Below, piece by piece: positions 4,485 through 5,140 of a stretch of 18,553 nucleotides of DNA (positions are counted from its first letter, which is position 1; the number at the start of each line of letters is the position of its first letter). The notes beneath the pieces were generated by a model. That model made no database searches. It was not told the origin of the DNA and was given only the letters and a program-made list of their open reading frames with translations. The position numbers and the translations under genes are program-made. The stretch is from a virus (taxonomy: Duplodnaviria > Heunggongvirae > Uroviricota > Caudoviricetes), in the IMG/VR virus record IMGVR_UViG_2541047776_000006; one strand, 5' to 3'.

Positions 4485-4949
4485 CTAAGTTTCATCTTCC
4501 TGCATGTCGGCAATTTCCTGTGCCGATTTGCCCGTTTTTCTGGCATAAGCAGGGATTAATACGGTTTCTACCTTACCCAGCAAATCAGCATAATCACGCA
4601 TATCGCCAGAGATACCCCACGGCTTGTGGATCATCATGAGCGCATTTTCTGGCATAATGATGCGATCGTCAGCCATCGCTATAACTGACGCCATAGAAGC
4701 GGCCAGGCCATCGATATGCACCATGACTTTTGCCGGGTGTTTATTGAGAAGGTTGTAGATAGCGATCCCGTCAAACATGTCACCGCCTGGCGAGTGAATG
4801 TGAAGACTAATATTGGAAATATCGCCTAGGGCTTTCAGATCCTCAGAGAACTACTGGGCAGTGATACCCCAGCCGCTAATCTCCTCGTAAATATTGATAT
4901 TGGCGCAGATGGCGTCGTTGGATGCTTTAATGGTGTACCAGCCTTTCAT
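4485..4949 (-). pseudogene. ClpP-family prohead protease gene interrupted by an in-frame TAG
   Basis: Minus-strand frame reads MKGWYTIKASNDAICANINIYEEISGWGITAQ-[TAG at 4851-4853]-FSEDLKALGDISNISLHIHSPGGDMFDGIAIYNLL...GLAASMASVIA...MIHKPWG... ClpP-like Ser/His motifs are present; only the part after the stop appears as a 97-aa ORF in the track. Confidence 0.6.
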
Positions 4950-5140
4950 AGCCATGCCCCCAGCGTATGGTGATGCCAGTAGTTCACTCTGCTACGCACA
5001 ATCTGACATTCAGTGAGGACTGGCATTTCCGGGTGAATCTTGCGAATGAATGCCTAGTACTCTTCGATTTTCTTCATGGTTTCAGCATCGATATGAACCG
5101 TACCGCCTTTATCGCGCTGCTTATTGTTCCGTTCTGCCAT
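4947..5140 (-). pseudogene. Small phage-module ORF interrupted by an in-frame TAG, translationally coupled to the protease gene
   Basis: Minus strand from ATG 5140..5138 (AAGGG upstream) reads MAERNNKQRDKGGTVHIDAETMKKIEEY-[TAG 5054-5056]-AFIRKIHPEMPVLTECQIVRSRVNYWHHHTLGAWL. Its stop overlaps the protease start (ATGA). Function unknown. Confidence 0.3.

Follow-up and report, generated by a model that had tools for sequence, protein, structure and literature searches.

Two amber-interrupted head genes in an Escherichia coli phage satellite are very probably the scar of a nested satellite

Results

A Gram-negative PICI-type satellite in the thiM leader

The DNA analysed here, a stretch of 18,553 nt (IMG/VR record IMGVR_UViG_2541047776_000006) which we refer to in full as the window, is identical (100%) to the chromosome of E. 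coli Es_ST80_L1_NDM_10_2017 (NZ_CP031215.1) and contains an integrated phage satellite, whose features are collected in Table 1. We compared it across three sets of loci: four complete, independently sequenced E. coli genomes (L001, L002, L005 and L006, three of them besides the source genome), which came from a human in the UK (n=1), a dog in Switzerland (n=1) and chickens in the USA (n=2); three metagenome contigs (L010, L012 and L013); and three reference loci with an intact ClpP-protease/major-capsid fusion gene (L003, L004 and L011, the last being E. coli 90-9280).

Two copies of a 14-bp att core, ATACGGGTATTTCT, bound the island (2551-2564 and 12336-12349), which measures 9,785 bp plus the duplicated core and lies between thiM and rcnR, in the thiM leader. 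An empty site reconstructed from its two flanks (2265-2564 joined to 12350-12650) was present at 100% identity over 601 nt in many E. coli genomes, and was contiguous in 4727 of 5426. Metagenome contig L012 (9,799 bp) corresponds exactly to 2551-12349, from att core to att core, which is the outcome expected of an assembly graph where integrated and excised or tandem forms coexist, and is circumstantial evidence that they do, and that a helper phage may induce and transfer the island. The island also splits the thiM TPP riboswitch, an observation which may be more interesting than the amber codons described below; our literature search on satellites integrating into thiM found nothing relevant.

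Table 1. Coordinates of the satellite and its features in the window (positions count from the first nucleotide of the window; a slash marks a sequence boundary).
Feature	Position	Strand	Evidence or detail
Whole satellite, Gram-negative PICI type	2551..12349	-	Direct repeat, empty site, contig L012
Integration module	9749..12148	-	Tyrosine integrase 10928-12148, DUF6387 protein 10077-10931, AlpA-type regulator/excisionase 9749-9973; all intact
Replication module	6180..8209	-	D5/P4-alpha-type primase-helicase 6392-8209; GGTGAACAGT iterons downstream, 6180-6390
HEPN-domain accessory gene	5288..6001	+	Pfam HEPN E=2.9e-5; between putative origin and late module
Small ORF pseudogene, 64 codons, phrog_4934	4946..5140	-	Coupled to the protease gene by ATGA overlap
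Amber codon 29, small ORF	5054..5056	-	Gln in at least 90% of 28 homologs
Chimeric ClpP-like prohead protease/major capsid fusion pseudogene, protease part only	4286..4949	-	PGAP, Pfam, tblastn
Amber codon 33, protease	4851..4853	-	CAG in L003 and L004; closest homologs read ITAQQFSEDL
Recombination junction, hybrid att-like core CATGATGATCCAC / AAGCCGTGGGG	4615..4638	-	Allele X to the 5' side, what remains of the invaded PICI gene to the 3' side
Third amber (TGG to TAG at 4485-4487), then 4-nt frameshifting deletion	4479..4487	-	Alignment to intact genes
1-nt deletion in T run (near 4388), second frameshift	4380..4398	-	Base still present in L010
Deletion junction (~4287/4288)	4277..4297	-	Codon ~227 joined to sequence just past the natural stop; 1,237 bp missing
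Terminator-like hairpin and cos-like block	4187..4283	-	Hairpin 4267-4283, T run 4261-4266, cos-like block ~4187-4260
Small terminase subunit homolog (DUF1441), intact	3548..4033	-	Pfam DUF1441 E=1.3e-35; PHROG 141 'terminase small subunit' E=6.7e-57
Conserved 93-aa protein, downstream of small terminase gene	3264..3545	-	phrog_1561 E=2.2e-51

The gene content is that of a PICI: the integrase stands at one end beside its AlpA-type regulator, the island has its own primase with iterons downstream, it is a discrete att-bounded element in the ~10-20 kb range which relatives do not have, and its cos-like block, which lies beside the gene of a putative packaging-specificity protein, matches that of a lambdoid prophage at the sequence level. 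The AlpA-like gene matched the PHROG 'excisionase and transcriptional regulator' (E=1.3e-18). After the integration module, on the same strand, follow an Icd-like gene, a gene for a hypothetical protein of 106 aa (8512-8832) and a DUF4222 gene; a gene of the YlcI/YnfO family, oriented the other way, separates the AlpA-like gene from the Icd-like one. The primase carries the Pfam domains D5_N, DUF5906 and Pox_D5, and the iterons downstream of it form a putative origin. PADLOC returned no matches for the HEPN, DUF6387 and small proteins, the HEPN gene also had no PHROG match, and no Rfam family reached its gathering score anywhere in the window.

The cos-like block, ~75 nt in length, is near-identical in the satellites of L003 and L004 and in the lambdoid prophage of L004, where it lies upstream of the DUF1441 terminase gene just as it does in the island, and its sequence and placement suggest that it may function as cos. 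With integrase, alpA, primase, origin iterons, cos and small terminase gene all intact, the island is probably mobilisable in helper-made capsids. No gene for a portal, a capsid protein or a large terminase is annotated in the island, in agreement with the absence of portal, major capsid and intact large terminase genes reported in a first-pass annotation of the window. We also considered the DUF1441 protein as a possible Rpp protein and rejected this, as it had no sequence similarity to any solved structure and its PHROG is that of the small terminase; because the RppC structure is solved (PMC6739421) and would have been matched, the DUF1441 protein is unrelated to RppC by sequence. Our literature search for DUF1441 found only phage-genome papers.

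The protease/capsid gene and its upstream ORF are both pseudogenes

The first-pass annotation had described a ClpP-family prohead protease gene and the small ORF coupled to it as a decayed head-morphogenesis module, each frame being broken by one TAG. PGAP labels the protease gene (DV870_RS01355) 'head maturation protease, ClpP-related; frameshifted; internal stop; incomplete; missing C-terminus', its pseudogene status therefore is already known from the RefSeq annotation, and no other island gene is marked as a pseudogene. The small ORF is uncalled by PGAP, and an antisense 'hypothetical protein' is annotated at 4973-5200 instead. The locus is thus a caution for annotation, with the protease gene flagged as a pseudogene and its coupled small ORF missed under an antisense call.

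The protease ATG, at 4949, overlaps the TGA of the small ORF. Read through its stops, the conceptual translation of the protease gene matched Pfam CLP_protease (PF00574, E=7.6e-30); its N-terminus had protein matches of up to 88% identity over the full length, and it shared 72-74% identity with intact fusion proteins over residues 1-161. Intact 637-aa fusion proteins used as tblastn queries aligned in three reading frames, over residues 1 to ~227 only, and the C-terminal HK97-type major capsid domain present in the intact relatives is gone from the window gene. The small ORF reads MAERNN...EEY(stop)AFIRK..., in full MAERNNKQRDKGGTVHIDAETMKKIEEY(stop)AFIRK...GAWL, and 28 homologs with 53-87% identity align on either side of its TAG. 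Because homologs align across each TAG, both frames are interrupted coding sequence and not chance ORFs. Together with the Pfam match, this upholds the first-pass claim that the TAGs at 4851-4853 and 5054-5056 break coding frames, which are conserved, as it does the wider reading of the locus as a decayed head-morphogenesis remnant inside a phage satellite.

Alignment to homologs, which the first-pass annotation had proposed as a check, recovered the ancestral codons: Gln at codon 29 of the small ORF, for which CAG is the sole Gln precursor one step from TAG; CAG at codon 33 of the protease; and TGG at 4485-4487 in the intact genes of L003, L004 and L011. The last of these had been taken for the natural end of the gene, and is instead a nonsense codon. 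All three TAGs are single transitions. Of the single changes that create a stop codon, CAG to TAG and TGG to TAG are the most frequent, and the two ambers originally noted are ordinary gene decay.

The protease frame had been described as otherwise continuous with a single TAG; the TAG stood, the continuity did not. Besides the third amber, the gene carries deletions of 4 nt, 1 nt and 12 nt (the 12-nt deletion being in frame, near 4609/4610), and has lost 1,237 bp which held the entire capsid domain, the counterpart of which (L003 7751-8987) is absent from the window. The same capsid-deletion junction string was common to L002, L005, L006 and L010. Measured against an intact fusion protein, the gene keeps the N-terminal ClpP (S14) domain and lacks the uninterrupted frame, which is broken by two TAGs, two frameshifts and one truncation. 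In the small ORF, comparison with 25 intact homologs placed L42 and C45 in invariant Pro and Gly columns, and E44 and R51 in nearly invariant Lys and Ser columns, substitutions which are the signature of relaxed selection. A ribbon-helix-helix regulator was tried as an identity for this small protein and rejected: the AlphaFold2 model was weak (pLDDT 67; helices 19-35 and 44-61), there was no Pfam match, and a Foldseek search of the model against the PDB gave nothing below E=2.6. The protease/small ORF region most likely does nothing, and residual activity may be left in a 97-codon ORF at 4485-4778.

The intact relatives also bear on how much of a head module there was to lose. The first-pass annotation had offered a capsid-forming satellite which has lost its capsid genes. 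Such an element would be a capsid-forming PICI (cf-PICI) that once encoded every head and packaging component, and the distal end of the satellite does hold a small terminase gene next to what is left of a protease gene, as this origin would have it. However, the satellites of L003, L011 and L004 consist in this region of just the small ORF, the gene for the protease/capsid fusion, cos, DUF1441 and one further small gene for a hypothetical protein, and no portal, large terminase, HNH or connector genes were found in these intact relatives, whereas a cf-PICI is by definition an element with genes for the complete set of capsid and packaging proteins (bioRxiv 10.1101/2022.09.08.507074). With portal, large terminase and connector genes missing even where the fusion gene is intact (L003 and L011), we consider a cf-PICI ancestry very unlikely.

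The amber codons are real and readthrough would be futile

Two amber codons so close together had been flagged for checking against sequencing error or a suppressor background. Were they errors of sequencing or assembly, and the gene pair intact but for them, they would have a precedent in the same genome, where the essential leuS is annotated 'frameshifted', which suggests some indel errors in the assembly. However, the TAGs are substitutions and not homopolymer indels, and the contexts of all three are repeated verbatim in the UK, Swiss and two US genomes (L001, L002, L005 and L006) and in contig L010, while across the region contig L012 is 100% and contig L013 99.99% identical to the window. 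Because the lesions are common to independent genomes and to metagenome contigs, sequencing error is excluded as their source, and its probability is virtually nil.

Alternatively, programmed recoding, or an amber suppressor of host or phage origin, might allow ribosomes to pass the TAGs, with both proteins still made. The premature stops are indeed all TAG (3/3), and two of them replace Gln, the residue inserted by supE. Against this, glnV and glnX of the source genome have wild-type CTG anticodons, which excludes supE, and a search for the supE allele, which doubled as a positive control, gave 155 records, of which all 40 listed were K-12-derived or laboratory strains. No tRNA genes were found within the window. 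Furthermore, downstream of its TAGs the protease gene has two frameshifts and no capsid domain, and the small ORF is without the invariant Pro42 and Gly45. Suppression is irrelevant here because the frameshifts and the loss of the capsid half make readthrough futile, and we regard it as extremely improbable that both proteins are still produced.

The 3' part of the pseudogene begins at the attachment site of a helper-embedded satellite

An att site of helper-embedded satellites (HES) has been described at C:CLP_protease:110, where 24 E. coli PICIs are invaded to give 20.6-kb composites (bioRxiv 10.1101/2022.07.18.500453). In the fusion protein the site falls at residues 104-108, or position ~105-112 of the Pfam profile, the latter being an estimate and not an exact computation. 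The remnant which forms the 3' part of our pseudogene begins exactly at the 13-bp core CATGATGATCCAT. This core, with a similar arm, is common to attL and attR of L011 and to attR of L002, L005 and L006; the window keeps the hybrid core only.

An intact composite was recovered in E. coli 90-9280 (L011), and runs in the order PICI ClpP N-terminus, attL, HES integrase, AlpA, RepA, HEPN, small ORF, intact fusion gene and cargo, then attR, the C-terminal part of the PICI fusion gene, DUF1441 and tRNA-Ile. Its attL reads ...ATGATGATCCAT / TATCCTTCAC, the arm starting TATCC, and its attR reads ...AATGTATTG / CATGATGATCCATAAAC, also given as ...TTTCAATGTATTG / CATGATGATCCATAAAC. The remnant boundary in L002 (...AATGTGTTG / CATGATGATCCATAAGC, also read as ...TTCGAATGTGTTG / CATGATGATCCATAAGC) is the same kind of attR. 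When the attL sequence was used as a query against intact fusion genes, homology ended exactly at ...CCAT. Similarly, truncated ClpP proteins of other genomes break after 'MMMIH', in L008 straight into a satellite integrase. The HES integrase beside attL is present in L008 and L011, and absent from the window, L002 and L005.

Such truncated proteins, when they end in 'MMMIH-YPSHYL...', were considered as IS66 insertions, and this was rejected. A transposase gene of the IS66 family does overlap the ClpP ORF at its end in L007, but ClpP homology already stops ~80 nt upstream of an IS66-like end sequence, and the break itself is a satellite attL.

The window is a recombinant of the two gene copies of a double module

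Three of the complete genomes (L002, L005 and L006) carry a double late module in place of the single, intact 637-aa-type fusion gene of L003, L004 and L011. Its order is small ORF with TAG, allele X, a first cos and DUF1441 (cos' and DUF1441'), a cargo gene, a ClpP remnant, then cos, DUF1441 and the 93-aa gene. Allele X is a full-length fusion pseudogene with the same TAG at Q33 and one frameshift, and the ClpP remnant is truncated at both its 5' and 3' ends. The cargo at the right end of L002 is confined to L002, L005 and L006, and no intact composite carrying this exact cargo was found.

Aligned to L002, the window matches at 100% in two blocks: 4626-5250 to L002 12284-12908, and 4034-4625 to L002 8372-8963. 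It thus recombines the two L002 copies exactly, with 100% identity to each; the crossover falls in AAGCCGTGGGG, and 3,320 bp separate the cores of the two copies in L002. Because 100% matches to allele X and to the remnant flank the core, the window derives by deletion from an ancestor like L002; for the change to have run the other way, an insertion would have to complete a full-length fusion gene in frame, which is far less parsimonious. Allele X shares 82.7% identity with a HES-borne gene versus 72% with the PICI target type; at ~72-83% nucleotide identity, intact alleles are too divergent from it for a dependable dN/dS over ~500 nt. The pseudogene is therefore the N-terminus of the embedded satellite's own gene joined to the C-terminal stump of the gene which that satellite invaded. 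A second alternative of the first-pass annotation, the remnant of a second element, proved apt, in that the pseudogene fuses pieces of two nested satellites.

Contig L010 has the same junction and the old lesions, but is ancestral at 16 substitution sites and at the 1-nt deletion site of the remnant; its other 2,080 nt do not differ from the window. Two separate origins of the junction would account for this, as would a later exchange of the right flank, and a single linear history leaves L010 unexplained without extra recombination or a second independent deletion.

Discussion

We hold with high confidence that the protease/small ORF region is a non-functional scar, neither a working nor a regulated gene pair, and this confidence extends to the full history that we propose for it. 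A Gram-negative PICI would first have carried a captured ClpP-protease/major-capsid fusion gene, followed by cos and the small-terminase gene. A HES would then have integrated into the fusion gene at the 13-bp core (C:CLP_protease:110), after which the severed 3' part would have decayed, by TGG to TAG, by the 4-nt, 12-nt and 1-nt deletions and by loss of the capsid half (1.24 kb). The two satellites would next have recombined where they are homologous, which would have removed the HES integration and replication modules and given the double module; judging from the mosaic of identities, the left half of the HES was probably lost through the shared HEPN/primase region. The HES-derived small ORF and allele X would each have gained a CAG to TAG change, and allele X a frameshift as well. 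In the window lineage, finally, a 3,320-bp deletion between the att-like core of allele X and the attR core would have fused 108 N-terminal codons to the remnant.

Gram-negative PICIs are reported not to need their captured capsid gene for transfer (bioRxiv 10.1101/2022.07.18.500453), and because satellite capsid genes are dispensable in this way, both gene copies would have been free to decay and their lesions to persist.

The last step of this history could also have been catalysed, the 3,320-bp deletion then being made by a HES tyrosine integrase that recombined attR with the att-like core which the protease gene of the satellite itself carries. The crossover does adjoin the 13-bp block of att identity, from which allele X differs at one base, and an identical junction on two remnant backgrounds (the window type and L010) would be expected of a targeted, recurrent reaction, although the L010 pattern is also obtainable by later exchange of the flank. 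However, the window retains the C of allele X at the last position of the block, which places the exchange in AAGCCGTGGGG, within the 11 nt that adjoin the attL/attR identity block, where strand exchange is not expected of an integrase. Furthermore, the 24-nt stretch which contains the crossover is the longest near-identical tract between the copies, so that ordinary recombination would prefer the same place, and no HES-type integrase is left in the island. We consider integrase-mediated deletion unlikely, and the length of the near-identical tract favours ordinary short-homology recombination. It is quite unlikely that the junction reflects a recurrent reaction of this kind, with the window and L010 as independent events; if true, this would give nested satellites a built-in route to collapse into one element, shedding the capsid module as they do so.

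HES-invaded PICIs such as L011 are among the closest known systems, and the window shares several features with them: the PICI backbone of primase, DUF4222, Icd-like and HEPN genes, the ClpP/capsid fusion target, the 13-bp core and attR arm, and the late module of small ORF, fusion gene, cos and DUF1441. It differs from them in lacking attL, the HES integrase and replication genes, both capsid halves and the 3.3 kb between the cores, and in its chromosomal site, which is the thiM leader where theirs is ileX/nfeF, and its integration module is another one. The window is a twice-deleted descendant of a HES-invaded PICI, and not a composite.

The locus offers a worked example of nested phage satellites decaying and merging into mosaics, and of a dead capsid gene carried between integration sites and hosts by an otherwise intact satellite. 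The finding is real but ordinary, with little weight for biology at large.

Other known systems resemble the island in part. With P4 it shares a tyrosine integrase, an AlpA-type regulator, an Icd-like protein and a D5/alpha-type primase-helicase, but it is without sid, psu and delta, has no Rfam match to the C4/CI RNA, and has a cos and terminase of the lambdoid DUF1441 type. With cf-PICIs it shares the presence of head-morphogenesis genes in a satellite, whereas these elements have a full capsid and packaging set where the island has one fusion gene and a small terminase (bioRxiv 10.1101/2022.09.08.507074). The layout of Gram-negative PICIs, including EcCICFT073, is int, alpA, primase, origin and a late zone (PMC6092414; PMC6739421). 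The island is like EcCICFT073-type PICIs in its ~10 kb size, in its captured capsid-type gene, which would be unneeded for transfer, and in having cos placed as in the cos-terS arrangement of phages; it differs from them in that packaging specificity would come from a DUF1441 small-terminase homolog and not an Rpp protein, and in that its captured gene is a ClpP/capsid fusion, now dead, where theirs is a lambda E-type capsid gene.

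Integration site and possible excision of the satellite

The satellite (hereafter the island) is inserted in the TPP riboswitch aptamer of thiM, of which the 14-bp att core forms part, and genomes with an empty site have a riboswitch annotated at the same place. The Rfam TPP model (RF00059) matched only the two halves, 9.8 kb apart, with 33.4 and 20.1 bits, both below the gathering score of 54.3. As the island splits the aptamer, thiMD is separated from the 5' half of its own riboswitch in this strain, and presumably also from its own promoter; a literature search found no report of a satellite inserted in the thiM TPP riboswitch.

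A 9,799-bp metagenome contig (OAVM01000615.1) matches window 2551-12349 at 100% identity, and its two ends coincide with the outer edges of the two att cores, an extent which fits a sample mixing integrated with excised or tandem forms of the island and suggests that it is still able to excise. The direct repeat near the island ends, in which ACTGACCACACA is present twice, may supply the arm-binding sites of the integrase.

A related satellite in another locus (L004) interrupts the large terminase of a lambdoid prophage, which has DUF1441 small-terminase, portal and ClpP/capsid fusion genes of its own. This is a helper-embedded satellite, and the prophage shows the likely type of helper for the satellite family found in the window.

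Coordinates of features in the window and in compared loci
Feature	Position	Strand	Remark
thiM TPP aptamer halves	2504-2564 and 12336-12385	-	insertion point
70-nt direct repeat	2628-2697 and 12181-12250		copies 86% identical, just inside both island ends
4-nt losses at TGGATGGATGG	window 4479-4484; L002 12273-12295 region		
'Hypothetical protein' WP_157836368.1 (PGAP)	4973-5200	+	antisense to conserved small ORF (phrog_4934)
HEPN-domain protein, 237 aa	5288-6001	+	between origin and late module
Related satellite in prophage large-terminase gene	L004 5592-6713 and 16869-17861		
leuS	L009 33467-36048 (NZ_CP031215.1 1963466-1966047)		annotated 'frameshifted'

Lesions in the chimeric pseudogene and neighbouring genes

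A second metagenome contig (L010, from ENA ERZ1689508) has the chimera junction in common with window 4191-6655, as well as the old lesions, and all 17 differences between the two fall within the 360-nt remnant of the invaded gene (4218-4576), none in the remaining 2,080 nt. At these 17 sites the contig retains the ancestral state. Such confinement to the remnant implies that the deletion arose independently a second time or that the flank was exchanged later.

Four nucleotides have been lost at the same tandem repeat, TGGATGGATGG, within the 'ETWMDG' motif of both allele X (the embedded-satellite gene) and the unrelated remnant allele, and the repeat looks like a slippage hotspot giving parallel frameshifts. 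The annotation of leuS, an essential gene, hints at residual indel errors in the assembly of the window's genome (NZ_CP031215.1); the lesions of the pseudogene region are unaffected by these, because they are common to other assemblies.

The HEPN gene, possibly with an accessory or defence role, had no match in PADLOC or PHROG, and its position is conserved in PICIs and embedded satellites (L003, L005, L008 and L011). The PGAP call opposite the small ORF is probably spurious; similar antisense calls occur in two intact relatives (L003 and L011), where the small ORF is likewise unannotated.
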